Assembly: GCA_965219575.1 (NCBI GenBank)
Contig: OZ244779.1
Location: 300,769-364,768 of the forward strand
Reading direction: 5' to 3'
Origin: Candidatus Oxydemutatoraceae bacterium
GTDB lineage: Bacteria; Pseudomonadota; Gammaproteobacteria; Poriferisulfidales; Oxydemutatoraceae
DNA length: 64,000 bases
This document shows, piece after piece, positions 9,353 to 37,068 of the stretch. The translations under genes and the position numbers were made by a program. A model generated the notes under the pieces. It was not told the DNA's origin. It did not search any database and saw only the letters and a list, made by a program, of their open reading frames with translations. Positions within the stretch are counted from its first letter, which is position 1. The number at the start of each line of letters is the position of its first letter.

Positions 9353-10312
9353 ATGAAATACTTACAACGCAATCTAATCTATGCCGGTTTGTGCTTACTG
9401 CTCATCTGCTCGGCGAATATGGCTTCCGCACAAGCACCTGGGGTTAGCGTGTCAAGTAGTCAAACAGTGGTTAGTCGTACTATAGATTTCACCGTGAACT
9501 TAAGCCGTCAACTTGGCGAAGATGAAGCTGTAGCAGTTAATATTCGGCTTCGCGATATTGTTCAAAGTGAAGTCGAGAGTATAAATCCTTTGGGAAAGGA
9601 TAGTACCAACCTATGTAGGCTTGTAGGTGGCGGATTTCGGTTTAGACGAGAGAACACTGACCCTCCTGTTAGACGAGAGAACACTGACCCTCCTGAATAC
9701 AGTTTGTGCATGGATGAAGGTGAACAAAATGTGACCATACGATTAGTATTAAAGGATACTTTTGATACGAGCAGAGCTATAGCAATTTCTCTATTTGGAG
9801 GATCCTATGCTACTCCTGGCAGTATTGGTAACATTTTTGTCAGCTCAACCTTAAATATTTTGCCACCATTGGAGGTTAGCCTAGAAAGAGGGACAACCAC
9901 TCAAACTTCAATGGGTCTCCGAATAGATTTCAAAGTCAACTTAAGCCGTGAACTTACAGGTAGTGAGGTACTACAATGTACCATTGATTTTAACAATATT
10001 GATGACGATGAAATTGATAGTATAACGCTTGTGCCTCCTCATCCGTCGTCTACTAATTTGGGTGCTGGTAGTTCGGATCCCCCCAGACGCGACTTGAGAA
10101 CGCGCGCCGGTGCACAAGACACAACTATACGATTACAGCTAAAAAGTCCTCCTTTTGATGAGACAAAAATTATATCAATTTCTTTGAGCGGTTGTCTTGG
10201 TAGTAATATCGCCGAGGGTGTCGAAGAAGATCTTCAAAACTCTATTTTATATTATCCCGACACGGTTATTTTGATCCGTAGCAAGGTTTTTTTGGAGGGT
10301 CCGCTCCAATAA
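9353..10312 (+). CDS. Secreted protein with two beta-rich repeats and C-terminal IRSKVFLEGPLQ
   Basis: Signal peptide ending ASA|Q; IDFTVNLSRQL and IDFKVNLSREL repeats; AT-rich. Confidence 0.75.
   Translation: MKYLQRNLIYAGLCLLLICSANMASAQAPGVSVSSSQTVVSRTIDFTVNLSRQLGEDEAVAVNIRLRDIVQSEVESINPLGKDSTNLCRLVGGGFRFRRENTDPPVRRENTDPPEYSLCMDEGEQNVTIRLVLKDTFDTSRAIAISLFGGSYATPGSIGNIFVSSTLNILPPLEVSLERGTTTQTSMGLRIDFKVNLSRELTGSEVLQCTIDFNNIDDDEIDSITLVPPHPSSTNLGAGSSDPPRRDLRTRAGAQDTTIRLQLKSPPFDETKIISISLSGCLGSNIAEGVEEDLQNSILYYPDTVILIRSKVFLEGPLQ
9642..9695 (+). repeat. Perfect 27-bp in-frame tandem duplication
   Basis: TTAGACGAGAGAACACTGACCCTCCTG twice (RRENTDPP x2). Confidence 0.95.
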
Positions 10313-10356
10313 CTATTCGTATCCTGTGGAAGGGAATTAACTAGTGCAGAACCTCT

Positions 10357-10565
10357 CGGGCTGTTGAAAAAGTATCGTCACGGCGTAATCGTAACCGCTT
10401 GCGCTGTGAATATTTGCAAACCACCCGTAGGGGCGGACTAGCATGTCCGCCCGTAACGCGTTGTTCCTACACGATTTATACATTCATCCATCCAATTTAT
10501 GGAAACCAAAACCAAATGGCGCAAGTGATTGGATTCGTACGATGCCGCACTTTTTCAACAGTCCC
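10357..10565. mobile_element. MITE-like element, 5-bp TSD CCTCT
   Basis: TIRs; CCTCT at 10352-10356 and 10566-10570; internal REP. Confidence 0.8.
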
Positions 10566-10647
10566 CCTCTGCGACCACCCCGTCAGGCTGACTAGAACCG
10601 CCGATTGAACCAGTAGGTCAATCGGCGTGACTTTGTACAGATGCGAT

Positions 10648-10814
10648 GGGGCTGTTGAAAAAGTATCCACGAACCGTAGGGGCGGACTAACATGTCCGCC
10701 CGTAACGCGTTGGCCGGCACGATTTATACATTCATCCATTCAATTTATGGAAACCAAAACCATACGGCGCAAGCGGTTGGGTTTGAGCGATGCCCGCGCT
10801 TTTTCAACAGTCTC
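10648..10814. mobile_element. MITE-like element with one REP
   Basis: TIRs present; no matching TSD. Confidence 0.7.
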
Positions 10815-10858
10815 CCGTAACGTATCGGCTAGCGCATACATTACAATAGGTAGGTAGA

Positions 10859-12835: not shown

Positions 12836-13576
12836 GTGAAAAATGAACAACCCGTAGTACTAATCACCGGTGCTGCCAAACGCGTTGGCGCACAAATTGC
12901 ACAAACACTGCACCACGCCGGGATGCGAGTGATATTGCATTATCGGCATTCCGCTGCCGATGCGCAGGCACTCGTCGGCAGTCTCAATGCAAAACATCCC
13001 GACTCGGCTTGTTGCTTTGCTGCCGATTTATCCGAACTGCGAGCGATAGAGGAACTGGCACAATCGGCACGACATCGTTGGGGATACTTGGATGCACTTA
13101 TTAATAATGCTTCGGCTTTTTATCCTACCGAACTTGCGACCTTGAATCCGGCGCATTGGGAGGAACTGATTAATATCAATATGAAAGCACCGCTATTTTT
13201 GAGCTGTGCGCTTGCCGACACGCTCGCGGCGCGACGCGGATGCATTGTCAACATCGGCGACATACACGCAATTCGCCCACTTAAGAAACACACCGTTTAC
13301 TCGGCGAGCAAAGCCGGGCTGGCAATGATTACACAATCGCTAGCCAAGGAGCTTGCGCCGCAGGTGCGATGCAATGCGGTTTATCCGGGCGCAATTCTAT
13401 GGCCCGAAAACGACTACGACGATGAGAGAAAACAAGAGGTTTTGGAGCGCACGATGCTCAAACGCGCCGGATGTCCCGAAGACATTGCCTCGGCTGTGCT
13501 ATTTTTGGTGCGAGATGCGGGCTACATCACCGGTCAAACAATTATTGTCGACGGCGGGCGCACTTTGCACAACTGA
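12836..13576 (+). CDS. Pteridine reductase (FolM-like SDR)
   Basis: TGAAKRVG, NNAS, YSASK; near folB/folK. Confidence 0.88.
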   Translation: MKNEQPVVLITGAAKRVGAQIAQTLHHAGMRVILHYRHSAADAQALVGSLNAKHPDSACCFAADLSELRAIEELAQSARHRWGYLDALINNASAFYPTELATLNPAHWEELININMKAPLFLSCALADTLAARRGCIVNIGDIHAIRPLKKHTVYSASKAGLAMITQSLAKELAPQVRCNAVYPGAILWPENDYDDERKQEVLERTMLKRAGCPEDIASAVLFLVRDAGYITGQTIIVDGGRTLHN

Positions 13577-13649
13577 ACCGCCACTTGCTCCAGTTGGGCA
13601 AGTGGCGTAACTTGGATAGATAAATGTATAAACATAGTACAGATACGAC

Positions 13650-13895
13650 GGGGCTGTTGAAAAAGTGCGGCATCGTACGAATCCAATCACTTGCGCCATT
13701 TGGTTTTGGTTTCCATAAATCAAATGGATGAATGTATTGATTGTACAGATGCAACGCGTTTCGGGCAGAATAGAGCCGCCGATTGAGCCAGTAGGTCAAT
13801 CGGCAATTTTGATGTCCGCCCCTACGGGTGGTTTGCAAATATTCACAGCGCAAGCGGTTGCAGTTGTGCAAAAACAGTAATTTTTCAACAGCCCC
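13650..13895. mobile_element. MITE-like element, 5-bp flanking repeat ACGAC, with hairpin nested in a REP loop
   Basis: TIRs; ACGAC at 13645-13649 and 13896-13900. Confidence 0.8.
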
Positions 13896-14024
13896 ACGAC
13901 ACAACCACCCCGTCAGGCTTCGCCTGCCACCCCTCCGAAGGAGGGGAATGTACCGTCCCTCAAGTTCGTGGATACTTTTTCAACAGTCCCCGCTACAACC
14001 ACCCCGGCAGGTCGGACGGCGGTG

Positions 14025-18974: not shown

Positions 18975-19269
18975 GGGACTGTTGAAAAAGTATTCCATAA
19001 AAGTTGTAGGGGCGGACTAGCATGTCCGCCCGAAACGTATCATGTTTGCACGATTAACGCGTTCACCCATTAATATTATGAAAACCATTATTTGTTGGCG
19101 CAAGCGGTTGGTGTTGTGCAGAACGATACTTAAGGGCAGACATCAGAGTTGCCGATTGACCTACCGGCTCAATCGGCGGCTTTATACTGCCCCTACGGCT
19201 TGGTGGTTATTATAAATTCACGGCGCAAGCGGTTACGGTTGAACGCTGACGATACTTTTTCAACAGCCC
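18975..19269. mobile_element. MITE-like element with REPs
   Basis: GGGACTGTTGAAAAAGT...ACTTTTTCAACAGCCC; ATAT on both flanks. Confidence 0.75.
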
Positions 19270-19278
19270 ATATACCAT

Positions 19279-19294
19279 TGTTTCCCGTGAAACA
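19279..19294. promoter_or_regulatory. parS site
   Basis: TGTTTCCCGTGAAACA, one mismatch to TGTTTCACGTGAAACA. Confidence 0.8.
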
Positions 19295-19333
19295 ATCAGC
19301 CCAAGCACGAAGTAAACCACCACAATACAACGT

Positions 19334-24219: not shown

Positions 24220-24318
24220 GTGTCCAAGAGAGCGAATGCCAAGCTGACTGCGATTACCTTTGCATTGATAGCGGTGGCCATTTATATCGGTTTTTATTTC
24301 ATAGTGGCATCTCGATAG
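24220..24318 (+). CDS. 32-aa single-TM protein in the cox operon (absent from the ORF track)
   Basis: GTG start, SKRANAKLTAITFALIAVAIYIGFYFIVASR; stop abuts the ctaG ATG. Confidence 0.6.
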   Translation: MSKRANAKLTAITFALIAVAIYIGFYFIVASR

Positions 24319-24882: not shown

Positions 24883-24903
24883 GCAGAGAATAGGGAGACA
24901 CTT

Positions 24904-25773
24904 ATGAGCACACAAACAGCGTATTATGTTCCACACGGTAGCCACTGGCCGATTGTCGGGTCGATTGCTTTGGCAAGTCTTTTTATCGGCGTATCGGCAT
25001 TTCTCAACGAAAGTGATATCGGGTTGCCGCTGATGGGGTTGGGGACGGCAATGCTCTTGATCATGCTGTTCGGTTGGTTCGGCACGGTGGTAAAAGAAAG
25101 CGAATCGGGCACCTATAACGATCAGGTAGACCTCTCGTTTCGCTGGGGAATGATGTGGTTTATCTTCTCCGAGGTGATGTTTTTCGCGGCTTTTTTCGGT
25201 GCCTTGTTCTATGCGCGGATGTTCTCGTTGCCGTGGTTGGGTGGTGAGGCGACCGGAGCTGCGACCAACTTTTATCTATGGCCGGCGTTTGAAGCACTAT
25301 GGCCTATGGCAGCGAACGGACCGGCGAGTATCGGCGGTGGGTTTCAGACTATAGGGGCATGGGGAATTCCGGCATTGAACACGCTGATCTTGCTAACCAG
25401 CGGTGCGACGGTTACCTGGGCGCATCACGGCTTAAAAACAAACAACCGCAGAGTCCTGATTTGGGGTTTATTTTTGACCGTTGCGTTGGGCTTCATTTTT
25501 GTCGGCTTTCAGGCATACGAATATTTACATGCGTATAACGATTTGAACCTAACCCTCAAATCGGGCATTTATGGTTCTACTTTCTTTATGCTGACCGGCT
25601 TTCACGGTTTGCATGTTACCTTGGGTGCGATCATCTTGTTGGTCATATTGATGCGCAGTATTTCCGGACATTTCACATCGCAAAAGCATTTCGCTTTTGA
25701 GGCTGCCGCATGGTATTGGCACTTCGTCGATGTGGTTTGGCTGGGTCTATTTGTTTTTGTTTATTGGGTTTAG
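24904..25773 (+). CDS. coxC: Cytochrome c oxidase subunit III
   Basis: FIFSEVMFF, TGFHGLHV, WYWHFVDVVW. Confidence 0.96.
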   Translation: MSTQTAYYVPHGSHWPIVGSIALASLFIGVSAFLNESDIGLPLMGLGTAMLLIMLFGWFGTVVKESESGTYNDQVDLSFRWGMMWFIFSEVMFFAAFFGALFYARMFSLPWLGGEATGAATNFYLWPAFEALWPMAANGPASIGGGFQTIGAWGIPALNTLILLTSGATVTWAHHGLKTNNRRVLIWGLFLTVALGFIFVGFQAYEYLHAYNDLNLTLKSGIYGSTFFMLTGFHGLHVTLGAIILLVILMRSISGHFTSQKHFAFEAAAWYWHFVDVVWLGLFVFVYWV

Positions 25774-25838
25774 CGACAAAACGGCAAAAGTTCGCTTTTG
25801 TTTTTACTATACTACTGGTTTTTCATAAATTTTGAAGT

Positions 25839-26297
25839 TCATTTTTCTTTTGCGATATCTAAAAAAACATCCCAGTTTTCTCTATAAGAATCAAGAAGGC
25901 TAACTGATTTTGTTTCACCCCAATCAGAGATATCGTGTACGGGAATAATATAGCAGTCGCCATTATCGCTATCTACGCCAACCAATATATCACAATCATC
26001 AATGGTGTACTTATAATCTCTTTTCTCCATATCCTTATCAAATTGTTTGCCACTGCGAAATCCTCCCATGAAACTAAATGTGCCGCCCTTGCGAATGCCT
26101 TTTATCTGTATCCGCAATAGTTTCTTTTGACCACCTAAATCAACCACCGCATCATATTTAGCATTGGTAACATCCACTCGTGAACAGGGAAAACCTGCCT
26201 TAATAATACGCCCAACGCCGATTAACTCATTAGCATTGCCGTTCATAGTTCTAAATATCCCAACTTCGATCTTGGTTAAATTTTCAGCCCAATCCAT
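25839..26297 (-). CDS. Small PD-(D/E)XK endonuclease
   Basis: E..KYDAVVD..IQIK motif; start overlaps the methylase 3' end. Confidence 0.7.
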   Translation of the reverse strand: MDWAENLTKIEVGIFRTMNGNANELIGVGRIIKAGFPCSRVDVTNAKYDAVVDLGGQKKLLRIQIKGIRKGGTFSFMGGFRSGKQFDKDMEKRDYKYTIDDCDILVGVDSDNGDCYIIPVHDISDWGETKSVSLLDSYRENWDVFLDIAKEK

Positions 26298-27109
26298 TGC
26301 TTAGTCCTTTTTCGCGAGAGGGCAACATATTCGGGATTGATTTCAAACCCGATATAACGCCGATCATGTTTTGCAGCGGCCACCGCCGTAGTACCACTTC
26401 CCATAAATGGGTCTAATACAACATCTCCTTTTTTAGAAGTTGTGAGTATCAACCTTTCGATCATTTCAACGGGGAATGACGCTTTATGCTCTTTGAACGG
26501 CTTGACATTCTGATTAAAAATATCACGATGAAAGTCCATTGCTTTTGCGCTTTCATAATCAAAAAAATACTTTGGGCTTTTCACAAAATGGAAAATATGC
26601 TCATAGCGAGGTAAGCGTCTGTCTTTTGAGAATGAAGGAATTGCGTTGGGCTTGTGCCAAATAATATCATTACGAAGTAACCATCCTTGCTCTTGCATCC
26701 CTATGGCCACCCGAGACGGAAGCATAAGTAGCTGTTTATATTGTAAAACCTTGCCGTCTTGCTTGCATATTTTATGTTCCTTATAGTGAGTGTCGGTGGA
26801 ACGCATATACTTACCGGTATTCCTAGAAAAGCCTTTTGTGCCAAAGTAAATGTCGCCGATATTTAGATAAAAAGAACCGGTGGGAGAGAGTGCTTGCCTT
26901 ATCAAAGGAGTAAATTTTAAGAAAGTATCTACATAATTTAAAGGGTTATCCTCTCTGCCGATAGTCTCGTTGCCGTATTCCCGACATCCGAAATAAGGTG
27001 GTGATGTAATAATTAGATCAACAGAGTTTGCATCTAGTTCTTTTAATAACTTCATTGAATCTCCGAGAGCTATTTTGTCGATGAATTTTTTATTTTTCAC
27101 TTCCGGCAA
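26276..27109 (-). CDS. DNA amino-methyltransferase, beta class (probably m4C)
   Basis: TSPPY precedes DPFMGSGTT. Confidence 0.9.
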   Translation of the reverse strand: MPEVKNKKFIDKIALGDSMKLLKELDANSVDLIITSPPYFGCREYGNETIGREDNPLNYVDTFLKFTPLIRQALSPTGSFYLNIGDIYFGTKGFSRNTGKYMRSTDTHYKEHKICKQDGKVLQYKQLLMLPSRVAIGMQEQGWLLRNDIIWHKPNAIPSFSKDRRLPRYEHIFHFVKSPKYFFDYESAKAMDFHRDIFNQNVKPFKEHKASFPVEMIERLILTTSKKGDVVLDPFMGSGTTAVAAAKHDRRYIGFEINPEYVALSRKRTKQWIGLKI

Positions 27110-27287
27110 ATCAAATAGATTAAGATTTTTGCGACGCTTTTTTCATATTCAAAACTTCCCATGTGGGAATAATAACATATCATAAAACTCTGTGCAGAAT
27201 GGTATATAATTCATAGTGATATGCTAAAAGATCACACGAAAACATGGAAGTTAAATATATAATTCCCCAAATCAGCACATTAATACG

Positions 27288-28166
27288 ATGAGAACAGAAA
27301 CCAGAAAATTCGGTGGAGGTAGTCGTATCGGGCACGATGCCTCGGCTTTTTACAACAGCAGAAAATATCGCCAACACACACCGCCGGGAAACGGCAAACT
27401 GCCTACTAAAGAGCGGATAATTAAACGCACGGAAAGAGACAAGATTTATCATAAATCGAGCGAAAATATGAATGAGTTGCCCGATAACAGCATACACCTG
27501 ATGGTCACTTCACCTCCGTACAATGTCGGCAAGGAGTACGACGACGATTTAACGACCGACGAATATCTGGGAATGTTGCACCGGGTATGGCAAGAGGTCT
27601 ATCGCGTATTGGTTGACGGTGGCAGAGCGTGTATCAATATCGCAAATGTAGGTAGAAAACCTTATATTCCGCTGAGTGCATTCATTACTTCGAAAATGCT
27701 CAGCATTGGTTTTCTGATGCGTGGAGAGATTATCTGGGACAAGCAGTCGTCGGCCGGAACTTCGTGTGCTTGGGGTAGCTGGCAGTCGCCGTCCAACCCG
27801 GTATTGCGCGACACCCACGAGTATATACTTGTCTTTTGTAAAAACTCGTTCAAAAGACCGAAACCGCTTCAAGTTACAAAGACACCGACAATAAGCAAAG
27901 CACAATTCCTTGAATATACCAAAAGCGTTTGGCACTTCAATGCTGAAAGTGCAAGGAAAGTACGGCATCCAGCCCCCTTTCCCATAGAGCTTCCTTATCG
28001 CTTCATACAGTTATTCACATACAAAAATGATGTTGTCTTGGATCCGTTTATCGGCAGCGGCACAACGGCGATAGCTGCCAAAAAAAGCAACAGGGTTTTT
28101 ATAGGGTATGAAACGAATAAGGAATATATCAAAATTTGCAAGGACAGATTAGCCGGTGAACAATAG
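27288..28166 (+). CDS. DNA amino-methyltransferase, beta class (probably m4C)
   Basis: TSPPY, HPAPFP, DPFIGSGTT. Confidence 0.9.
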   Translation: MRTETRKFGGGSRIGHDASAFYNSRKYRQHTPPGNGKLPTKERIIKRTERDKIYHKSSENMNELPDNSIHLMVTSPPYNVGKEYDDDLTTDEYLGMLHRVWQEVYRVLVDGGRACINIANVGRKPYIPLSAFITSKMLSIGFLMRGEIIWDKQSSAGTSCAWGSWQSPSNPVLRDTHEYILVFCKNSFKRPKPLQVTKTPTISKAQFLEYTKSVWHFNAESARKVRHPAPFPIELPYRFIQLFTYKNDVVLDPFIGSGTTAIAAKKSNRVFIGYETNKEYIKICKDRLAGEQ

Positions 28167-28193
28167 ATTTTTTGAGGAGAAGGTATATCGGGA

Positions 28194-28600
28194 GAGGCGG
28201 TTGAAAAAGTATTGGCATCGCAAAAATCCAACCGCTTGCGCCATTTGGTTTTGGTTTCCATAAATTGGATGGATGAATGTATAAACATAGTACAAATACG
28301 GCACAACCACCCCGTCAGGCTACGCCTGCCACCCCTCCACAGGAGGGGAATGTACCGCCCCTAAGGTTCAATGTACCGCCCCTAAGGTTCGTGGATACTT
28401 TTTCAACAGTCCCACGAGACAACCACGCCATGGAAAGGTTTTACATTTTGTATTTATTCGAGGTTATGCACAATGTCACGCCGCTTGTGCTACTGCAACA
28501 AGTGGCGGTTCTATTTCGCCTGCCACCCCTACACAGGAGGGGAATGGTACACCCCTACACAGGTCGGTTACATTGCGGTTCTATTTTTAAGCAGCTCCGG
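28194..28600. repeat. MITE-like element (28194-28413) plus hairpin repeats
   Basis: Degenerate TIRs; 21-bp tandem duplication at 28349-28390. Confidence 0.75.
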
Positions 28601-28642
28601 GTGACTGTTCGGGCAATGCCATGCGGTAAATTAACCGCACAC

Positions 28643-28855
28643 TCACATCGGCACAATGCCGTGGGGTTGTATCCAACCCATTCCATAGCTCAGCACCAGT
28701 AGGAAAAACACGATGATAGACAATATCACCCGCGCAGTTAAGGCATTGACGGTTTTTTTACCTCGCCCCTTGTCTTTCATCATGGAAAAGAGTGCCGCGC
28801 CTAGGCTTACGACAATTCCCACAAACAAGAATAAAAGAATTATTTTTACCCACAT
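28643..28855 (-). CDS. Twin transmembrane helix small protein (DUF2909)
   Basis: SLGAALFSM..ALTARV..GWIQPHG; divergent from SURF1. Confidence 0.85.
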   Translation of the reverse strand: MWVKIILLFLFVGIVVSLGAALFSMMKDKGRGKKTVNALTARVILSIIVFFLLVLSYGMGWIQPHGIVPM

Positions 28856-28903
28856 GATGTATCAAACATAGCAATTACCATACTTATATTATACTATCTC
28901 ATC

Positions 28904-29632
28904 ATGAAATTAGGTCATTATCAGTTTTCTCCACCGCTTTTGGTACTTTTATCGGCTATATTTTTGTCTGCGCTTTTTGCCGGCTTGGGTCGGTGGCAGA
29001 TCGATCGCATGTATCAAAAAGAGGAGATTATTGCGCAGTATCAGCAAAGGCAAGCTGCGCCTGCAATCGATAAACTGCCTCCGGCAACCGCCGATTTGGA
29101 AGAGTGGCGTTATCGTCAGGTACAGCTCGACGGGCGACTGCTTGCCGAGCGGCAGTTTCTGTTGGACAACCAGATCTCGGGCGGACGGGTCGGCTTCAAT
29201 GTACTGACACCGATGGCGTTGGAAGACGGCAGCACAGTGTTGGTTGACCGAGGCTGGGTTGCTATGGGTGCTCGGCGTGAGGACCTGCCCGATGTGCGTC
29301 TGACTACCGACCCCGAGACGATAACCGGCACGATTTATGTGCCGTTCGGAGAACCGTTTGCGCTCGGTAGTGCGACGATCGGCGAGGTTGGTTGGCCGCG
29401 CATCGTTCAATATCTAGACTTCAAGGCACTCGGTGATTTATTGGGAACCTCGCTTTTGCCTATGGTTGTGCGTCTGTCTCCACAACAAGCGGGGGGTTAT
29501 AAAAGAGAATGGTCTCTTATTGCCATGTCGGCCGATAAGCACTTGGCTTATGCAGTGCAATGGTTCGCACTGGCAGCGGTGCCGGTGATTTTGCTGTTGG
29601 TGCTCAACATCAAACGGAACGATGAACGATAA
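28904..29632 (+). CDS. SURF1 family protein
   Basis: LGRWQ, LLDN, VDRGWV, KHLAYAVQWF. Confidence 0.93.
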   Translation: MKLGHYQFSPPLLVLLSAIFLSALFAGLGRWQIDRMYQKEEIIAQYQQRQAAPAIDKLPPATADLEEWRYRQVQLDGRLLAERQFLLDNQISGGRVGFNVLTPMALEDGSTVLVDRGWVAMGARREDLPDVRLTTDPETITGTIYVPFGEPFALGSATIGEVGWPRIVQYLDFKALGDLLGTSLLPMVVRLSPQQAGGYKREWSLIAMSADKHLAYAVQWFALAAVPVILLLVLNIKRNDER

Positions 29633-30218
29633 GCGATTATCGCGCCTGAAGTTGATCGGCATATTTTCTGCATTTGCCGGCCCCTTATTGATTGCGTCGG
29701 TGCTTTATTTCGGGCAAGGGTGGTTTGAATTCGGTTCTACCGAGCGCGGTCAGTTGTTGTCATCCGGGCAGACTCTCGATTCCGAAGATTTTAATTTAAT
29801 AAAGGATGATCAAACAAGCGATGCAAATGGCGCACCGTTGCTCGACGGTCGTTGGTTACTAGTGTTTCACGGCAGCCGAGCGTGTAATCTTTATTGTCAA
29901 GCGAGCCTATTCAAGATGCGTCAGGCGAGATTGGTGCTGGGGCGCGATGCCGCCCGCGTGCGCATCGTCTATTTGCTTGCCGATGCACAGCAACCCGATA
30001 CAGAGCTAAACCGATTATTGCTTCAATATCCGGCACTTTCGGTGTATCGGATAGAAGATACCGCAGATGTGCGCGCACAAGCACCGCAATTTCGACAAAA
30101 CCAAGTTTATATTGCAGATCCTTTCGGCAATTTGGTCATGTTTTACCTACCCGATGCTTATTCGCGAGACATCATCAAGGACTTTAAGCGTCTACTGAAA
30201 GCCTCCAAAATCGGTTAA
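29622..30218 (+). CDS. Cytochrome oxidase biogenesis protein (SCO/thioredoxin-like)
   Basis: N-terminal TM, CNLYC, DPFGNLVM, LLKASKIG; cox context. Confidence 0.7.
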   Translation: MNDKRLSRLKLIGIFSAFAGPLLIASVLYFGQGWFEFGSTERGQLLSSGQTLDSEDFNLIKDDQTSDANGAPLLDGRWLLVFHGSRACNLYCQASLFKMRQARLVLGRDAARVRIVYLLADAQQPDTELNRLLLQYPALSVYRIEDTADVRAQAPQFRQNQVYIADPFGNLVMFYLPDAYSRDIIKDFKRLLKASKIG

Positions 30219-31198
30219 TGAATACATCTTATTTCTTAAAGGGTGTTGGTGTCGCATTGGTGCTGACAATGCTGGTTATCGTATTGGGGGCGTATACGCG
30301 CCTCAGCGATGCCGGATTGGGTTGCCCCGATTGGCCGGGGTGCTACGGGCAGTTGCTGGGTGTGCCCGAGCAACCTGCCGAGATAGAACAAGCCGAACAG
30401 GCTTACCCCGGTTGGCGCGTCGAGGTTGATAAGGCATGGATTGAAATGGTACATCGCTACTTTGCCGGCGGGTTGGGTTTAATCATCCTAGCACTAACCG
30501 TATTCGCATTTATCAAAGCCAAGCACCGCCGAGGCTTAATGCTGTTTCTGCTCGGCTTGGTCACCTTCCAAGCACTGCTGGGCATGTGGACGGTCACTTT
30601 GTTATTGCAACCACTCGTCGTTGTTGCCCATTTACTGGGAGGCTTTACGGTGCTCTCATTATTGTGGTGGCTATACCTAGACCGATGGTTTGAACCGAAG
30701 CAGGCAACCGTTCACAACAAAGCCTTTTATAAAATTACTTTAGTCGCATTGGTTTTGTTGGTTATGCAAATCACACTCGGCGGATGGACCAGTTCCAATT
30801 ATGCGGCACTCGCCTGTATCGATTTTCCGCTATGTCAGGGTTTATGGGTACCCGATGCCGATTATCGTGGGGGATTTCAATTTTTGGTTGACGAACAAAA
30901 CTATGAATACGGTGTGTTGGATAGCCCGCAACGCACCGCAATACACTTTTCTCACCGCTTGGGCGCATTGATTGTCACGGTGTTCTTTGTGGTGTTCTTG
31001 GCAAAACTATTCGCTCAAGGCTCGGCACTCGTGCGGCGGGTTGCACTAGGCATTGCGTCCCTGCTGGTTGTTCAAATCATGCTGGGCATTTCAAATATCG
31101 TATTTTCTTTGCCGTTGGCTGTTGCGGTCTTGCATAATGCGGTCGCCGCACTATTACTTTTATCGTTATTGCTCTTATTGCGCGTGCTAAAATCATAA
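30218..31198 (+). CDS. ctaA: Heme A synthase COX15/CtaA
   Basis: AGLGCPDWPGC, EMVHRY, HRLGA. Confidence 0.93.
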   Translation: MNTSYFLKGVGVALVLTMLVIVLGAYTRLSDAGLGCPDWPGCYGQLLGVPEQPAEIEQAEQAYPGWRVEVDKAWIEMVHRYFAGGLGLIILALTVFAFIKAKHRRGLMLFLLGLVTFQALLGMWTVTLLLQPLVVVAHLLGGFTVLSLLWWLYLDRWFEPKQATVHNKAFYKITLVALVLLVMQITLGGWTSSNYAALACIDFPLCQGLWVPDADYRGGFQFLVDEQNYEYGVLDSPQRTAIHFSHRLGALIVTVFFVVFLAKLFAQGSALVRRVALGIASLLVVQIMLGISNIVFSLPLAVAVLHNAVAALLLLSLLLLLRVLKS

Positions 31199-32456
31199 AG
31201 AATTATACAGATAACTTGACAAATAAATGTTAAATTATATCAATGAAAACTCATAGAATAACCAGATACTGTTTGTACCCGGCGACCTATGAAAAGCATC
31301 AGCAATTACATGGAACTGCCGGAGCATGTCGTCATGTTTGGAATCACTTTGTAGCTAAGTTAAAGGACGAATACGAGTATTGCGGCGAGAGCCGGTTTAG
31401 CTTTTTCACCATAGGCAAGCAATTTACGACATTGCGAAAGCATTGCGACAAGTGGTTGCAAGGTTATTCCGCTTATATCGTGAAATCATCATTACAACCG
31501 ATAGAAATAGCATACAAAGGATTTTTCAAAGGCAACAACGGATTGCCGAAGTTTCACGGCAAATATACGCATAGCCCGTCTTTCCCGATCAATTATCAAT
31601 CGGCAAAACTATCGGGTTGTCACTTGTATATACAGAAAGTCGGCTGGATGAAGTTTGCCGGTGGCGATAGGTATCAAGGTGAGAAGTTTGTATCGGGTCA
31701 AGTGAAGTATGAGTGCGGTCATTGGTATGCATATATTTGTTATGAAGTAGAGCTAGCGGACAAACTGCACATGCTAAAGGAAGTGGGTTTGGATAGGAAT
31801 GTGGGGCAGATAGCATTGTCGGATGGAACACTGTATCACTTACCCGACTTAAAGCGTAAGGAAGCAAGGCGTAGGCGTTATCAACGAATGGTTGCTAGAC
31901 GGGTCAAGGGGAGCAACAGACGCAAGCTAGCGAAGTATAGATTACAGAAAGCGTATCAAGCGGAGCGATTTGCGAGGGCGAATTGGTGTCATCAAACCAG
32001 CAAGCTCATAGCAGATAAGTACGATATTGTTTATATGGAAGGATTAAATACAGCAGAAATGACGAAGTCGGCGAAGGGGACGATAGACAGTCCGGGTAAG
32101 CATGTGAAAGCAAAGTCAGGTTTGAATAGGGAGATACTAAAGAGTGGCTGGTATAAACTGGAGCAATGCTTAAGCTACAAAGCACAGGTAGAGAAAGTGC
32201 CGGCACACTACACGAGTCAGACCTGTAATAAATGTAGCGCGATAGATAAAGCAAGCCGCAAAACACAATCAATTTTCAAGTGTCGGTATTGCGGACACGA
32301 GGACAATGCGGACATCAATGCTGCATTAAACATTATGGCGGTTGGGAGTACCGCTACTGGGTGTGGAGATTGCAACATTGGTTGGTCTGTGAAGTGCCAA
32401 AAAGATAGGGTGGCGAGGCGGTCTAACAAGTCTGTCAAGTTACCTATATAATTCCC
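31198..32456. mobile_element. Non-autonomous TIR element carrying tnpB, 8-bp TSD AAATCATA
   Basis: 24-bp inverted ends (20/24 identical); AAATCATA at 31190-31197 and 32457-32464. Confidence 0.85.
31243..32451 (+). CDS. tnpB: RNA-guided endonuclease TnpB
   Basis: N-terminal CRHVWN, RuvC residues VGLD / YMEGL / NADINAALNI, zinc finger CNKC..CRYC. Confidence 0.93.
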   Translation: MKTHRITRYCLYPATYEKHQQLHGTAGACRHVWNHFVAKLKDEYEYCGESRFSFFTIGKQFTTLRKHCDKWLQGYSAYIVKSSLQPIEIAYKGFFKGNNGLPKFHGKYTHSPSFPINYQSAKLSGCHLYIQKVGWMKFAGGDRYQGEKFVSGQVKYECGHWYAYICYEVELADKLHMLKEVGLDRNVGQIALSDGTLYHLPDLKRKEARRRRYQRMVARRVKGSNRRKLAKYRLQKAYQAERFARANWCHQTSKLIADKYDIVYMEGLNTAEMTKSAKGTIDSPGKHVKAKSGLNREILKSGWYKLEQCLSYKAQVEKVPAHYTSQTCNKCSAIDKASRKTQSIFKCRYCGHEDNADINAALNIMAVGSTATGCGDCNIGWSVKCQKDRVARRSNKSVKLPI

Positions 32457-32483
32457 AAATCATAGGCTCGAAGCTCAGAGACG

Positions 32484-33386
32484 ATGACTTTTTCCACACT
32501 ACAAATGGATGCGACACGGCTTCGCGTCGGAAATTATTTTGAGGTATGCAAACCCAGGGTGGTTGCGGTAATGCTGTTCACCGCACTGGTCGGCATGTTG
32601 GTTGCCACACCGTTGACCTTGCCGTTTAGTACGATGCTTGCAGCGATGATCGGCATTGCGTTGGTGTCTGCTTCCGCCGCCGCCATCAATCATGTTGCCG
32701 ATCATAGAATAGACGCACTGATGCAGCGCACCCGAAATCGTCCGCTACCCAGCGGCGCACTATCGGCACGCGAAGTATTGACTTTTGCCGGAGTAATCGG
32801 CACCGTAGGCACACTGATATTGGTGCTTTTTGTTAATGTACTCACCGCGGCATTAACCCTACTATCGCTAGTCGGCTATGCGGTCGTCTATACGCGCTTC
32901 TTAAAATACGCAACGCCGCAAAACATCGTTATCGGCGGTGCTGCCGGTGCGACACCACCGATGCTCGGTTGGACGGCTGCCACTGGGCAGTTGGATTTCG
33001 GCGCATTTTTATTATTTCTAATCGTTTTTGTCTGGACACCACCGCATTTTTGGGCACTGGCGATGTGCAGAAAAAAAGAGTACGCCGCAGCCGGGGTGCC
33101 GATGCTACCGGTCACGCACGGTGAAGATTTTACCCGCCTGCAGATACTGCTCTATATCATTCTGTTAACACTGGTTACGACGCTTCCCTATGTAACCGGT
33201 TTGTCGGGACCGGTATATTTATTCTCGGCAACACTGCTAAACGGGGTGTTTATATATTACGGCTTGGTTCTGAGGATAAATCGCACCCCGAATAAAGCGA
33301 TGGAAACATTCGGATTTTCCATCGTCTACATTATGTTGCTGTTCACGGCCTTGCTTGTTGATCGCTATATCGGTTTATTGATTTAA
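32484..33386 (+). CDS. cyoE: Heme O synthase
   Basis: CKPRV, DALMQRTRNRP, WTPPHFW. Confidence 0.95.
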   Translation: MTFSTLQMDATRLRVGNYFEVCKPRVVAVMLFTALVGMLVATPLTLPFSTMLAAMIGIALVSASAAAINHVADHRIDALMQRTRNRPLPSGALSAREVLTFAGVIGTVGTLILVLFVNVLTAALTLLSLVGYAVVYTRFLKYATPQNIVIGGAAGATPPMLGWTAATGQLDFGAFLLFLIVFVWTPPHFWALAMCRKKEYAAAGVPMLPVTHGEDFTRLQILLYIILLTLVTTLPYVTGLSGPVYLFSATLLNGVFIYYGLVLRINRTPNKAMETFGFSIVYIMLLFTALLVDRYIGLLI

Positions 33387-33394: not shown

Positions 33395-33920
33395 GGGGCT
33401 GCTGAAAAAGTATTTTATGCACGTAGGGGCGGACTAACATGTCCGCCCGTAACGCGTTGGCCGGCACGATTTATACATTCATCCATTCAATTTATGGAAA
33501 CCAAAACCAAATGGCGCAAGCGGTTGGTGTCGTGCAGAACGGTACTTAAGAGCAGACACACAGGTCTGCCCCTACGGCTTGGTGGTTATTATAAATTCAC
33601 GGCGCAAGCGGTTACGGTTGCAAGCTGACGATACTTTTTCAACAGCCCCAAAAGTATCTGCAATATTTATACATTCATCCATTCAATTTATGGAAACCAA
33701 AACCAAATGGCGCAAGCGGTTGGTGTCGTGCAGAACGGTACTTAAGGGTAGACACACAGGTCTGCCCCTACGGTTTGGTGGTTATTATAAATTCATGGCG
33801 CAAACGGTTACGGTTGCACGCTGACGATACTTTTTCAACAGCCCCGTCGTGTCTGCAACATTAATACAATTTATGGAAACCAAAACCCGATGGCGCGTAG
33901 CGCGTGGGTTTGTGCAGAAG
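33395..33920. repeat. MITE-like element (33395-33649) with partial tandem copy to 33845
   Basis: TIRs, REP doublet and a duplicated internal block. Confidence 0.8.
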
Positions 33921-33925
33921 TGAGG

Positions 33926-34900
33926 TTATTCGCCGCGAAAATGCTCTTGATTATCCAAAAACCACTGGTAAAACGACGGCAACCCTTCGGCAAGGCTGAT
34001 ACTATGGTGCCAACCTAAACGGTGTATCAAAGAAACATCCATCAGCTTGCGCGGTGTGCCGTCCGGTTTTGAGGTGTCGTAGACAATCTTGCCCTCGAAG
34101 CCGACTATCTGTGCAATTAAAGCGGCGCAATCGGCAATCGTAATTTCCTCGCCCGAACCGATATTGATGTGCGATTGTTGGGGGGAGATATGCTTGTCAT
34201 AGCTTGCTTTGTCTACTTGCATAATATACAGACATGCAGAGGCTAAATCATCAACATGCAAGAATTCACGCTTCACCTTGCCGGTCCCCCAAATCTCAAT
34301 TTTATCCGAGTTGCTTGCCGTCGCCTCGTGAAAGCGGCGCACCAACGCTGCCAAGACATGGCTGTTTTTTAGGTGAAAATTATCACCCGGACCATATAAA
34401 TTAGGCGGCATCAGAGAGCGATAATCGGTTCCGTATTGGCGGTTGTACGACTCGCATAGTTTGATACCGGTGATTTTTGCAACCGCATAAGGCTCGTTGG
34501 TCGCTTCCAAATGCCCCGACAGCAATGCCACCTCGGGCATCGGTTGTGCGGTTTGGCGTGGGTAGATACATGAACTTCCCAGAAAAATCAGGTTCTGTAT
34601 ACCGGCTTGCCATGCTTCGTGAATAAGATTTATCTCGATCATCAGATTCTGATGTATAAACTCGGCAGGATAGGTATTGTTTGCGTAGATTCCACCGACG
34701 CGGGCTGCCGCAACGACGAGACAATCGAGCGGGTTTGATTGAAAGAATTGACGCACCGCCGAGGAATCGCACAGATCCAGTTGTTTGTGCGGGATGGTAA
34801 TCGGTTGCTTAAAGCCTTGTGTTTGCAATGCTCTGACGATTGCCGAACCGACCATGCCGGTATGCCCGGCAACATAAACGGTGCTATTTTTGTTAATCAT
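33926..34900 (-). CDS. fcl: GDP-L-fucose synthase
   Basis: GHTGMVG, AARVGGI, GSSCIYP, YAVAK. Confidence 0.95.
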   Translation of the reverse strand: MINKNSTVYVAGHTGMVGSAIVRALQTQGFKQPITIPHKQLDLCDSSAVRQFFQSNPLDCLVVAAARVGGIYANNTYPAEFIHQNLMIEINLIHEAWQAGIQNLIFLGSSCIYPRQTAQPMPEVALLSGHLEATNEPYAVAKITGIKLCESYNRQYGTDYRSLMPPNLYGPGDNFHLKNSHVLAALVRRFHEATASNSDKIEIWGTGKVKREFLHVDDLASACLYIMQVDKASYDKHISPQQSHINIGSGEEITIADCAALIAQIVGFEGKIVYDTSKPDGTPRKLMDVSLIHRLGWHHSISLAEGLPSFYQWFLDNQEHFRGE

Positions 34901-34916
34901 CGGCGATATTACAGGG

Positions 34917-35975
34917 TTATTGTTGGGAGAGTTTTTCAAACTTTGCGAGCTTCAGATCTTCTTCTACCATTTCGTCTACGAGTTCGTCAAAAGTAATTTT
35001 GGGTTGCCAGCCCAGCTCGGTGCGCGCACGGGCGGCATCACCTTTTAAGGCTTCCAGTTCAAAGGGTCGAAAGTATCGAGGATCTACTTTGACAACGAGC
35101 CTCCCAGTTTTAGTGTCTATACCCTGCTCGTCAACGCCGGAACCTTGCCATTCTATTTGCATATCCATGCGTCCGGCGACGACTTCGACAAATTCCCGTA
35201 CCGAGCGTTGCTCACCCAGCGCAATCACATAATCTTTGGGCTTGTCTTGTTGGAGCATGAGCCATTGTGCTTCGACATAATCGCGGGCGTGTCCCCAGTC
35301 GCGCAGTGCGTCTAGGTTGCCTAAAGCAAGATAGTCTTGCAGGTTATTTTTGATACGGGCAAGTGCTCGGGTTATTTTACGGGTGACGAAAGTCTCACCG
35401 CGTTTTTTAGATTCGTGATTAAACAAAATGCCGTTGACCGCATAAATCCCGTAGGCTTCTCTGTAAATAACCGAAATCCAGTAAGCGTATAATTTGGCGG
35501 CAGCGTAGGGCGAGCAGGGGCGAAATGGTGTATCCTCGTTTTGAGGGCTTTCCGGCGATTGACCGTACATTTCCGATGTGGAGGCTTGGTAATAACGCAC
35601 CGTTTTATTCATGTGTAGGGTGCGGATTGCCTCGAGCATTCGCAGCGGACCCAAAGCATCCGAGTTTGCGGTGTATTCGGGCTCTTCAAACGAGACGGCA
35701 ACATGAGATTGCGCAGCGATATTGTATATTTCGTCGGGTTTTGTCTTTTCTATGATATGAACCAAGCTACTGGAGTCGGTCATATCGCCGTGGTGCATGT
35801 TGAATCCTTTACCGTGCTCGTGGAACTTGTTGTATAAATGGTCTACTCGGTCGGTATTGAATAGCGAGGTTCGCCGTTTAATGCCGTGAACGGTATACCC
35901 TTTTTCCAGCAGGAACTCGGAAAGGTAGGCACCGTCTTGCCCCGTGACACCGGTGATTAATGCGCATTTACTCAT
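34917..35975 (-). CDS. gmd: GDP-mannose 4,6-dehydratase
   Basis: [24 protein letters not shown]. Confidence 0.96.
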
Positions 35976-36081
35976 TGTTGATTACTTGTTTTAGGAATAA
36001 AGGGAGGAATTATAGCATATAAACTTGTTCTGGTTATTTTCCTCCTGTGGCGGGGCGGCAAACGAGATAGAACCGCCGGTT

Positions 36082-37068
36082 CTATTGAAGCGGTCCTTCC
36101 AAGAAAACTTTGCTACGAATGTAAATAGCTAGCGGATCGCCAATAGTGACCGTGGTTTGACGGCATGATCGGTTATTCATTGCTTGAGTCTCGGTCAGGT
36201 TACTGGGCGGGTTACTTTCCCCTATCACTATGGAAAACTGCTCTTCACCCTCAATACGATTGTCTCTCACTATCAGGTTTTCCAATGTGAAGCTGTTTTC
36301 GCCTGCTTTGATGACCACCGGAGTTATGGGGTTATAGTCAACATTCTTGAACGCCGTTTCATCGGTATAGATGAGTGTTACCGTGGTATTCCTATTCAAG
36401 CCTATCGTGGTATCGGCATTCTCCCCTCTGCGCAGTTCAATTATCGGTAGGTTGGTATTATCGCCCTCTCGAACGGAATAACTCCGTTGCGAGAAGCAAA
36501 GTAAGTATTCATCGTCCAATACCCTGAAAGTGATAGAACTGTTGGTACCACTGCGTCTGATATTGCTGGAGATATTATTAGGTGTAGGCATTGAGCCTAG
36601 AGAAATTAATATATCATTATCGCCGCCGGGATTTAAAGCAGAGTTATCGTTGAGCTGCCATTCCAATGTTGCGGTTTGCGCGTTTGCACCGCTAAAGGTA
36701 ATACTTTGAGTAAAAAGTTCCTTATTAAAATTTAGGCTAACACCATCACCGGATACGAGTCTTAGAATCCCAGTTTGTTGAGGAATCCCAGGTTGTTGAG
36801 TTAGCTGCCCTTCTGTGGAGAAAGTTAGCTGTAGTGATTGACCGGTTCTAAGCGGTCGGCTTAAAGAGATGGAAAACCGTATCTTGGGTCCGACAAGCCT
36901 ATCGCCTTGAGGGATGCCTTCGTATATCGGTGAAGGAGACAATCGCTCTATGCTATATATCAAGTCTTGTGCGACGGCAGACTGTGTAAAGCAAAGAGCC
37001 AACAAAAACAAGCCGAATAGCAATACACGCCGACGATAGGTATTGTTGTTGTGGACATAAGTATTCAT
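36082..37068 (-). CDS. Secreted Calx-beta-like domain protein with C-terminal IRSKVFLEGPLQ
   Basis: Signal peptide ending AVA|Q; FSQRSYSVREG..TA..DY..DNRIEGEEQF. Confidence 0.75.
   Translation of the reverse strand: MNTYVHNNNTYRRRVLLFGLFLLALCFTQSAVAQDLIYSIERLSPSPIYEGIPQGDRLVGPKIRFSISLSRPLRTGQSLQLTFSTEGQLTQQPGIPQQTGILRLVSGDGVSLNFNKELFTQSITFSGANAQTATLEWQLNDNSALNPGGDNDILISLGSMPTPNNISSNIRRSGTNSSITFRVLDDEYLLCFSQRSYSVREGDNTNLPIIELRRGENADTTIGLNRNTTVTLIYTDETAFKNVDYNPITPVVIKAGENSFTLENLIVRDNRIEGEEQFSIVIGESNPPSNLTETQAMNNRSCRQTTVTIGDPLAIYIRSKVFLEGPLQ

Follow-up and report, generated by a model that had tools for sequence, protein, structure and literature searches.

A candidate C-terminal sorting or anchoring tag on Sec-exported, mostly adhesin-like proteins of the "candidatus Porisulfidus" lineage

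Why should two exported proteins, encoded far apart and on opposite strands, end in exactly the same peptide? The question was raised by a window of 64,000 nucleotides (the whole stretch of DNA that was analysed) from a Candidatus Oxydemutatoraceae bacterium, in which two open reading frames both end in IRSKVFLEGPLQ followed by a stop codon (Table 1). Compared codon by codon, six of the last 12 codons differ between gene 1 and gene 2, all of them synonymously. The stop codons differ as well (TAA and TAG, respectively), and the DNA 3' of the stops is unrelated. A six-frame scan found the motif at only these two gene ends in the window. A chance coincidence cannot explain why the final 12 residues of two proteins are identical. 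An earlier note on this DNA had described the shared ends, the synonymous differences and the change of stop codon, all of which are present, and had proposed a C-terminal sorting or anchoring signal.

Table 1. Positions of the two tagged genes and their features in the window
Feature	Positions	Strand	Description
Gene 1	9353..10312	+	319 aa; Sec-type signal peptide and two tandem small-family modules
Gene 1, predicted signal peptide	9353..9430	+	MKYLQRNL...NMASA, cleaved before Q; by eye (AxA rule)
Gene 1, decayed internal tag equivalent	9815..9874	+	PGSIGNIFVSSTLNILPPLE; junction of modules 1 and 2; from alignment
Gene 1, C-terminal tag	10265..10309	+	VILIRSKVFLEGPLQ; stop TAA at 10310-10312
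Gene 2	36082..37068	-	328 aa; signal peptide, one family-like module, Calx-beta domain, tag
Gene 2, predicted signal peptide	36970..37068	-	MNTYVHNNNTYRRRVLLFGLFLLALCFTQSAVA, cleaved before Q; by eye
Gene 2, Calx-beta domain	36136..36516	-	residues 185-311; PF03160, E = 2.2e-9
Gene 2, C-terminal tag	36085..36129	-	AIYIRSKVFLEGPLQ; stop TAG at 36082-36084

Both N-termini are Sec-like, as previously suggested, with a basic n-region, a hydrophobic core and a cleavage site of the ASA-Q or AVA-Q type, judged by eye without a predictor. In gene 1, the profile of a family of small secreted proteins matches twice (residues 1-152 and 172-319), and only the second module carries the tag. In gene 2, the Calx-beta match scores 37.8 bits against a gathering cut-off of 27 and covers model positions 3-117 of 119, with the tag lying outside it. 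The statement in the earlier note that the two proteins have little in common beyond an FxxxLSR motif has to be corrected. The small-family profile also detects a module at the N-terminus of gene 2 (independent E-value 4.8e-6), and the two proteins find each other by BLASTP with E = 2e-5, a value that owes most to the tail.

The motif is not confined to these two proteins. An exhaustive protein search retrieved a family of small secreted proteins in which the signal peptide is conserved, the body variable and the tail the same. A phmmer search with gene 1, which is independent of any tag pattern, gave 25 matches, 14 of which end in [KR][VF]FLEG[PA]LQ. Within this small family, the sequences share on average 69.5% pairwise identity over the signal region, 28.6% over the body and 79% over the tail; the gene 1 signal peptide is strongly conserved in the family alignment. 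The DNA of 185,579 species genomes was scanned with the pattern KVFLEG[PA][LF]Q, which thus fixes the last nine residues. It occurs at 45 places, 26 of them in three genomes from relatives of the window's organism, all "candidatus Porisulfidus". In all 26 the motif runs straight into a stop codon, which the search pattern had not asked for. Among the remaining 19 matches there is no credible C-terminal tag; one of them ends a 21-residue junk frame. Seen in one narrow lineage only, the tag is probably specific to "candidatus Porisulfidus", and the window's organism is a member or a close relative of it.

The tagged proteins have many architectures and are mostly adhesin-like. They range from modules of 100 residues to giants of more than 2000, and the open frames exceed 2009 residues in 19 of the 26 genomic carriers. 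As revealed by Pfam on 23 carriers, the tag is preceded by Cadherin-like arrays (up to 18 repeats), Big_2, Big_9 and GLUG-containing proteins; it also follows Calx-beta and the small-family module. One carrier (L039) is a subtilase with a Peptidase_S8 and a proprotein-convertase P-domain. Taken together, the domains preceding the tag are of at least five different types. Every carrier whose N-terminus is in view has a signal peptide as judged by eye, namely both window genes, the small family and the carriers L037 and L039. The last two are the only ones with a Sec-like start among the 26 genomic carriers, of which 20 have their N-terminus beyond the 6-kb flanks or off the contig end and four more are fragments or broken genes.

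The 15-residue consensus is [GA][ILV]R[IVL]Rx-KVFLEGPLQ-COOH. At positions -14 to -11, which the pattern left free, the 26 genomic copies have I16/L7/V3, R20, I19/V4/L3 and R25. The two window copies and the 26 genomic ones are not 28 independent cases, as several are orthologues across the three genomes (for example L007/L033/L035 and L016/L019/L022). Still, they exist in 27 distinct 27-nt DNA versions and use all six Leu, all four Val and all four Pro codons as well as all three stop codons. Every copy ends at the same residue, with Gln terminal in 28 of 28. The tag is under protein-level selection, which bears out, on many more copies, the earlier reading of the window pair as selection on the protein and not recent copying. 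The same 27 versions, three stop codons and common end residue show that the copies are not recently truncated relics of a longer domain. Intergenic repeat elements of the genome often lie 3' of the tagged genes, as might be expected if the conserved feature were one of DNA or RNA, such as a recombination site, a mobile-element end or a translational signal, and not the peptide. We give this explanation practically no chance: every synonymous codon is used, the sequence 3' of the stops is unrelated between copies, Rfam has no match in the window, and any mechanism dependent on nucleotide sequence is refuted by 27 DNA versions among 28 copies.

The tag is modular, occurs at the terminus only and goes together with signal peptides. 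It starts two to three residues past complete matches to two domain families, Calx-beta and the Cadherin-like PF12733, the latter matched over model positions 3-89 of 89 and ending at residue 1992 of a 2009-residue carrier. An AlphaFold model of the family module is a complete sandwich (pLDDT 85, pTM 0.78), in which the last 18 residues are coil with a pLDDT of about 60, against about 90 in the body; being a monomer model, its floppy tail says nothing on binding. Both observations speak against an integral strand of the last domain, which the earlier note had considered. Where two modules stand in tandem, in gene 1 and in its relative P0003, the tag equivalent at the module junction has degenerated, whereas terminal copies are nearly invariant.

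The earlier note had also placed KVFLEGP at the start of a larger domain in some Bacteroidota proteins, and this was correct. The motif opens an unannotated domain, roughly 220 residues long and found in Bacteroidota, Chlorobi and Calditrichia, with the overall pattern LDLKVFLEGPF...PLxQPYNxxPWNYxGxE...VDWVLVELR...HRNHL, followed by dockerin-like loops. The Bacteroidota-type domain, modelled with a pLDDT of 96.9, is predicted to resemble an X-module plus dockerin. Its best PDB matches are type II X-dockerin dyads with target-normalised TM-scores of 0.56-0.60, at Foldseek E-values of 4e-3 and above, none reaching 1e-3. The tag shares with dockerins its place at the end of cargo proteins of diverse kinds, and it repeats the opening strand of the domain in the same register (GIDLDL[KL]VFLEGP[FY] there, GIRIRAKVFLEGPL here). 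As a member of this domain it has to be rejected, because only the first 14 or so of about 220 positions are matched, without the calcium-binding loops.

Could the tag then be a functionless vestige, either the first beta-strand of this domain left after a truncation or the last strand of whatever domain precedes it? In support, a profile built from 59 domain members, chosen independently of the pattern, places the 28 tags among the 30 best of 10,676 six-frame fragments, although single E-values range from 0.03 to 9 and the loci were preselected for the motif, so that homology is unproven. A vestige, however, would hardly keep the same end residue in all copies through saturated synonymous divergence and three different stop codons, follow at least five domain types, or stay invariant at the terminus while decaying internally. 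Furthermore, tblastn against the window and the 26 loci found nothing of the domain beyond the tag, neither after any stop nor elsewhere. The relic reading is close to refuted, and we consider it very improbable. The likeness to the opening strand of the Bacteroidota dockerin-type module suggests a route by which a tag of this kind could come about.

No Pfam or NCBIfam model matches the tag, and in the literature searched no paper describes it. Among known C-terminal signals, the type IX secretion system (T9SS) CTD offers a close parallel, as a modular signal on Sec-exported surface proteins and adhesins, often giant and multi-domain, with many unrelated carriers per genome. With about 70-100 residues, the T9SS CTD forms a folded domain, whereas only 15 residues are conserved here and the model shows them without structure. 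Moreover, this lineage is a gammaproteobacterial relative of SUP05, in which a T9SS is not expected. Assignment as type A or type B cargo was rejected: the last 60 residues of ten carriers, searched against the NCBIfam T9SS models at E up to 10, gave only two chance-level matches of 12-14 bits against cut-offs of 260-420.

In PEP-CTERM/exosortase, GlyGly-CTERM/rhombosortase and LPXTG/sortase substrates, too, a short signature, always at the very C-terminus, is shared by many secreted proteins of one genome, paralogous as well as non-homologous. Their signals are tripartite (signature, transmembrane helix and basic cluster), in contrast to the tag, which has no hydrophobic helix. Reading the 28 tails confirmed this distinction, already drawn in the earlier note. 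None has a PEP signature, a hydrophobic stretch or a basic tail; LPXTG, its hydrophobic segment and its positive tail are absent in 28/28; each tail has a single Gly, then P-L-Q and the stop. NCBIfam gave no match for any of the three classes.

The BAM beta-signal is also an amphipathic C-terminal strand, necessarily terminal and read by strand pairing. It is the last strand of a barrel and has a terminal aromatic residue. The tag ends in Gln in every copy, as opposed to an aromatic residue, and follows soluble Calx-beta, Cadherin-like or Big sandwiches, and an outer-membrane beta-barrel was rejected. A terminal extra strand on an Ig-like module, able to complete or extend the sheet of a partner, recalls the donor strand of chaperone-usher and type V pili. 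Here, the model predicts the family module to be a complete sandwich, the carriers are mostly giants of several domains and not pilins, and no chaperone or usher family was found among 99 neighbouring ORFs scanned. Type I secretion (T1SS) RTX adhesins share the giant, repetitive build and the information at the C-terminus. T1SS substrates are not known to carry Sec signal peptides and have poorly conserved C-terminal signals. The tagged proteins differ on both counts, with signal-peptide-like N-termini wherever these are in view (out of view in 20 carriers) and a nearly invariant tag; Pfam found no RTX family in 23 carriers, and this assignment was rejected too.

We therefore hold it probable that the tag is a modular, lineage-specific C-terminal sorting or anchoring tag without a membrane-spanning segment on Sec-exported proteins. 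Appended after the last folded domain, the tail would remain exposed in the periplasm after export. Its residues h-R-h-R-h-K-V-F-L-E would make up an extended amphipathic beta-strand, and G-P-L-Q a final turn that carries the free carboxylate. One common envelope component would recognise the tail, probably by beta-strand augmentation, and would then move the proteins across the outer membrane or retain them on the cell surface. We infer the surface location, the protein partner and the mode of recognition, and likewise docking or export through the tag by strand complementation. The flanks of tagged genes hold type II secretion (T2SS) genes L, M and N and a PilMN-PilP-secretin-ATPase cluster, indicating that routes for folded periplasmic proteins exist in these genomes. 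In the gene neighbourhoods scanned, no partner gene was found near any carrier, and no gene family recurs beside the tagged genes beyond the shared ancestry of the three genomes.

This lack of a neighbouring partner would fit an anchoring that needs none, in which a cationic amphipathic strand of net charge +2 sticks to LPS or the outer leaflet, or the tails zip together as cross-beta. Alternating basic and hydrophobic residues can bind LPS, and the alternation I-R-I-R-A-K-V-F-L-E is clear in all 26 genomic copies. It is weaker in the small family (IFIRSKV), however, and the invariant part is KVFLEGPLQ and not the basic alternation. Nine invariant residues at an exact terminal position suggest a specific binding pocket over general physico-chemistry, and we regard partner-free anchoring as unlikely. 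Somewhat less likely still is a role in processing or turnover. The tail would then be a C-terminal propeptide or degron, recognised by the tagged subtilase or by a periplasmic protease of the tail-specific or PDZ type, and would be cleaved off or serve to control protein levels and not to sort or anchor. The decay of internal copies indicates that a free C-terminus is needed, the tail is exposed in the AlphaFold model, and L039 with its P-domain would be a candidate enzyme. Yet no protease gene recurs beside the carriers, and a degron on dozens of very costly giants is hard to explain. Known tail-specific proteases favour non-polar C-termini, and the last residue here is Gln. A signal can, moreover, serve both cleavage and sorting, as in the T9SS, so that this explanation partly overlaps with the sorting or anchoring tag that we prefer.

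A bolder version of the sorting tag, which we put forward tentatively and consider rather doubtful, is that KVFLEGPLQ-COOH is the address label of an undescribed Gram-negative sorting pathway. A 15-residue strand without a transmembrane segment would be read by a dedicated envelope receptor. In host-associated SUP05 relatives, this receptor would export, or dock on the cell surface, covalently or not, a whole set of giant adhesins and small hypervariable modules. It might be a surface protein with the rest of the X-module-like fold, so that the tag completes a split domain.

Each of the earlier tags (LPXTG, PEP-CTERM, GlyGly-CTERM and the T9SS CTD) pointed the way to a dedicated machinery and accounted for the display of whole sets of surface proteins. 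The present tag is short, nearly invariant and without the transmembrane helix common to short tags of that kind, and it appears to be an address or anchoring label of a new kind. Among the exported proteins of this uncultured marine lineage, it marks those that are largest and most variable. The lineage also carries type III secretion genes and homologues of eukaryote-directed effectors. If a receptor exists, the tag would be a handle for finding it, by phylogenetic profiling or a complex-prediction screen, and possibly a very small portable display tag. It would also provide a one-line rule for listing the surface proteome of these bacteria.

The two window proteins that share an identical end, gene 1 and gene 2, were confirmed as the ORFs claimed in the earlier note, and both close with IRSKVFLEGPLQ. 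In a six-frame translation these are the only sites of the shared end motif in the window. The codon comparison likewise came out as claimed: six of the last twelve codons differ, all synonymously, and the stop codons are TAA and TAG; the DNA 3' of the stops is unrelated. By eye, both N-termini are Sec-signal-like, with a basic n-region, a hydrophobic core and ASA|Q or AVA|Q. Pfam places a Calx-beta domain (PF03160) at residues 185-311 of gene 2 (37.8 bits; cut-off 27). Nothing in Pfam or NCBIfam matches gene 1, and neither collection returned a model of the tag when both window proteins were scanned.

The tag has a wider distribution. When gene 1 was compared exhaustively by phmmer with 1.84 billion representatives, 25 sequences matched at E ≤ 0.001, and 14 of these end in [KR][VF]FLEG[PA]LQ (twelve with RSKVFLEGPLQ or RSKVFLEGALQ, one with RIKVFLEGALQ and one with RTRFFLEGALQ). 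Nine hits are shorter pieces or variants without the tag end and may be incomplete, one (P0023) reads through past the motif, and one (P0024) is an unrelated repeat protein. In P0023, a metagenome protein, RVKVFLEGPLA replaces PLQ-stop and the frame continues for 44 residues of repeat-element-like coding; it appears to be a natural example of a tag turned internal by stop loss. Word-index protein searches using the C-terminal 44 residues of gene 2 returned the query alone among two candidates of 'near' lengths and no match in the 'longer' range, negatives that are unreliable because tail-bearing members of suitable length (P0003, P0006, P0019) were missed.

A DNA scan of one genome per species (185,579 species) with the pattern AARGTNTTYYTNGARGGNSCNYTNCAR, encoding K-V-F-L-E-G-[PA]-[LF]-Q, yielded 45 loci. 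Three 'uncultured candidatus Porisulfidus sp.' genomes hold 26 of them (OZ241323 11, OZ244052 nine, CBDAVG01 six), and in all 26 a stop codon, not required by the pattern, directly follows the motif. Of the other 19, six are alphaproteobacterial proteins with an internal KVFLEGALQTRKW, which we take to be SSB-like. In four more, two from Bacteroidales and one each from Bacteroidetes and Calditrichia, the motif stands at the start of an internal domain, and two longer frames have it inside. The remaining seven are junk frames (20-80 residues), among which L004, with 21 residues, ends in the motif by chance. The possibility that only the two window proteins carry the motif is thus set aside by the 14 tagged hits and the Porisulfidus loci.

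Over the 26 genomic copies the consensus reads [GA]-[ILV]-R-[IVL]-R-x-K-V-F-L-E-G-P-L-Q. Positions left free by the search pattern are strongly conserved (n = 26), with I16/L7/V3 at -14, R20 at -13, I19/V4/L3 at -12 and R25 at -11. At the DNA level, the 28 copies (26 genomic and two from the window) hold 27 distinct versions of the 27 nucleotides, use all six Leu, all four Val, all four Pro and three Gly codons, and stop with TAA (17), TAG (8) or TGA (3). Because nearly every DNA version is distinct, and synonymous codons and stops vary, this comparison shows that selection acts on the tag peptide and not on the DNA. The earlier claim of protein-level selection rather than recent copying is borne out. 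As accounts of the tag, both a DNA-level feature and a functionless relic are close to excluded.

The Porisulfidus carriers are mostly very long. Nineteen of the 26 frames are open to the limit of the 6-kb flank, at 2009 residues, and one passes the end of its contig. Two, L039 (1896 aa) and L037 (445 aa), are complete with signal-peptide-like starts, and four (L011, L018, L043, L045) are fragments or broken genes. The N-termini of 20 carriers lie outside the flanks; wherever an N-terminus is visible, tag carriers have signal peptides. Pfam, applied to 23 of the 26, found Cadherin-like PF12733 in up to 18 repeats, GLUG, Big_2, Big_9, He_PIG, a K319L-like PKD domain, and Peptidase_S8 with a proprotein-convertase P-domain; for two of these 23 carriers Pfam gave no family. 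In gene 2 the tag begins 2-3 residues past a complete Calx-beta match (model positions 3-117 of 119), and in L033 and L035 equally 2-3 residues past a Cadherin-like match (positions 3-89 of 89, ending at residue 1992 of 2009). Lying outside these complete matches, it is not an integral strand of the last domain, a reading that would have spoken against a separate signal. An AlphaFold model of the second module of gene 1, built on a 15-row family alignment (pLDDT 85.2, pTM 0.78), predicts a beta-sandwich to about residue 134 and coil for the last 18 residues (block pLDDT 59-73). By Foldseek the sandwich resembles cohesins, Calx CBD1 and, from a Gram-negative fibrillar adhesin, the CLIPPER domain (9ifr), with modest TM scores (0.41-0.55 query-normalised, up to 0.64 target-normalised). 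If the tag is taken as a strand, hydrophobic and charged residues take turns over the ten positions of I-R-I-R-A-K-V-F-L-E, before the G-P-L-Q end. These observations establish a tag that is modular, strictly terminal and under peptide-level selection.

The phmmer hits form a small secreted family (members among P0003-P0026), mostly of 105-190 residues, with a common and strikingly conserved signal peptide, MKYLRRYLIHAGLCLLLVCSANVASAQ. Pairwise identity across nine full-length members averages 69.5% for the signal peptide, 28.6% for the body and 79.2% for the final 20 columns of the alignment. Such nearly invariant ends around a highly variable body resemble those of gene families whose exposed part is under diversifying selection. 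Two Cys residues are conserved and may form a disulfide bond, the ESM Atlas gives a weak Calx-beta lead (score 0.79), and the window's own 2.37-Mb contig also encodes one member, P0004. Gene 1 is, by the family profile, a tandem of two such modules, in which the tag-equivalent stretch at the internal junction has decayed to PGSIGNIFVSSTLNILPPLE; it has likewise decayed at the junction of the two-module relative P0003. The N-terminal module of gene 2 matches the same profile (independent E-value 4.8e-6), so the window proteins are distant relatives in their first modules. This corrects the view in the earlier note that they have little similarity beyond a short motif.

The earlier note mentioned a motif like the tag at the start of a larger domain in some Bacteroidota proteins, and this is indeed found in L001, L009, L031 and L038, where [LV]KVFLEGPFQ opens a domain running on for 208-430 residues. 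Neither Pfam nor NCBIfam has a model for this Bacteroidota-type domain. Of 242 candidate homologues, 192 proteins matched it at E ≤ 0.001, the named ones all being 'hypothetical protein' from Bacteroidales, Bacteroidetes or Chlorobi, and in the ESM Atlas the domain sits among unnamed Bacteroidota clusters. PDB sequence searches with it, gene 1 and gene 2 gave nothing below E = 0.29. In its predicted structure (pLDDT 96.9, pTM 0.93) the motif region lies inside the fold. Because type II X-module-plus-dockerin dyads match it best in the PDB (TM 0.56-0.60 target-normalised, E = 4e-3 and above), the domain is probably a docking module. The family (P0029-P0148) is large, C-terminal and unannotated, spans Bacteroidota, Chlorobi and Calditrichia, and includes some proteins in which Pfam finds cohesin (PF00963) as well. 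There is thus a hint that the three groups have a cohesin-dockerin-like display system, one without a Pfam or NCBIfam model.

The common opening of the domain, GIDLDL[KL]VFLEGP[FY]NGxxMxTxLN, is in the same register as GIRIRAKVFLEGPLQ. A profile of the opening, made from 59 members of which none was picked by pattern, placed the 28 tags among its 30 best matches out of 10,676 six-frame fragments, with individual E-values of 0.03-9 and at loci that had been selected for the motif. We regard the likeness as a real resemblance, for which homology is possible. When four of the domains were compared with the window and the 26 loci by tblastn, only the tag matched, and the rest of the domain was absent.

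The window and the Porisulfidus genomes have intergenic repeat families in common and are 79-85% identical over three aligned stretches (339-1276 nt), covering two housekeeping genes and one IS605/TnpB-type element. Because of these repeats and this identity, the window can be assigned to the Porisulfidus lineage or a close relative. A figure legend places the genus as outgroup to SUP05 (PMC9123188). Window intergenic regions are dense with modular repeat elements, each in 6-9 copies and either orientation: GC-rich hairpins such as GGGGCGGAC...GTCCGCCC, a CATCCAT.CAATTTATGGAAACCAAAACC module and a GGCGCAAGCGGTT...CTTTTTCAACAG module. Rfam gave no match on the window, repeats included.

Other window genes include a partial type III secretion cluster (SctL, CesT-type chaperone, SctN ATPase, SctO, HpaP) with an inserted 814-residue HAMP/SpoIIE-phosphatase/HATPase protein. 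In related genomes, tagged giant genes have an 861-residue IpgD-like ORF (inositol phosphatase effector family) immediately downstream, and a YscU-family gene is found near another tagged gene. The cytochrome c oxidase operon (coxB, coxA, ctaG, coxC ... SURF1, CtaA, CtaB) is interrupted twice. Because the window has a serine-cycle-type set (hydroxyacid dehydrogenase, two succinyl-CoA-ligase-like subunits, HpcH-type lyase, class V aminotransferase) and related genomes have the tetrahydromethanopterin-pathway genes MCH and Mpt_N with DsrC, the gene content suggests one-carbon metabolism beside sulfur oxidation in this SUP05 relative. An Arg/Gly/His-rich ORF of 379 residues with no family match, opposite the region upstream of atpC (62503-62919, -), is probably an antisense shadow of atpD and not a gene.

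Positions of features in the window and at loci of the genome scan (L-numbers)
Feature	Position	Strand	Remark
Gene 1	9353-10312	+	319 aa ORF, ends in IRSKVFLEGPLQ
Gene 1, signal-peptide-like start	9353-9430	+	conserved in the small family
Gene 2	36082-37068	-	328 aa ORF, ends in IRSKVFLEGPLQ
Repeat-rich intergenic regions	1560-1850, 6900-7440, 9020-9290, 10345-10820, 13560-14015, 18975-19300, 28200-28550, 33395-33900, 62050-62490		
Partial type III secretion cluster	446-6820		
Cytochrome c oxidase operon	21805-33383		
Operon interruption 1	25842-28163		two N6/N4 DNA methylase genes, PD-(D/E)XK nuclease gene
Operon interruption 2	31243-32448		IS605-type TnpB gene, 85% identical to L011 copy
Serine-cycle-type set	40036-45334		
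379-residue ORF	62806-63942	+	
Bacteroidota-type domain	L001:5986-6720, L009:5377-6042, L031:5986-6750, L038:5374-6042		
Type III secretion-related ORFs, related loci	L011:28-804; L012:1086-3668; L025:6868-9450		
MCH, Mpt_N with DsrC, related genomes	L008:963-1928; L022:3946-4848		
Pil/secretin cluster	L007:388-3424, L016:85-5129, L033:441-3477, L035:32-4919		convergent to tagged gene

Among the flanking ORFs of tagged genes no general partner gene was found by all-against-all BLAST of 163 ORFs and Pfam on 12 and 87 of them; the flanking genes are mostly housekeeping and differ between loci. NCBIfam on 12 unexplained flanking ORFs gave a PA0111-family match alone, unrelated to the tag question. 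A PilMN / (unknown) / PilP / secretin / T2SSE-ATPase cluster faces the tagged giant gene at four loci, and a signal-peptide-bearing VWA protein of ~900 residues is encoded directly downstream of the tagged gene at L011, L042 and L044. This recurrence is weak evidence because the loci are orthologous between the three genomes, and it can be explained by shared ancestry. The Pil/secretin cluster is compact and present in all three Porisulfidus genomes, with a PilMN-fusion and, as second gene, an uncharacterised 220-residue protein; the tagged gene beside it is giant and cadherin-like, and in some of the genomes cluster and tagged gene are separated by restriction-modification genes or a gene for a PBECR2 nuclease. 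T2SS genes L, M and N are found 3 kb away from L044, and L019 has a CsgG-like gene nearby. Anchoring might also proceed without a protein partner, through tails that bind LPS or other tails, which we consider unlikely; a processing or turnover signal seems somewhat less probable again.

The tag behaves like known C-terminal sorting tags and lacks the hallmarks of each family compared. It has neither the transmembrane helix nor the basic tail of PEP-CTERM, GlyGly-CTERM and LPXTG and lacks the terminal aromatic residue of the BAM signal, as the earlier note had observed; the folded CTD of T9SS is missing as well, and its carriers have signal peptides, unlike T1SS. The C-terminal 60 residues of 10 carriers, scanned with NCBIfam at E up to 10, produced chance-level matches only, and no Pfam or NCBIfam model matches the tag. 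The motif was not found in the literature text searched, no paper turned up on C-terminal sorting in sponge Thioglobaceae, and a wider literature search on sponge symbionts and cadherin yielded nothing relevant by title or abstract. As the most economical mechanism, and the one towards which we lean, the exposed C-terminal strand and its free carboxylate would be recognised by one shared envelope component, which would then export or anchor the carriers.
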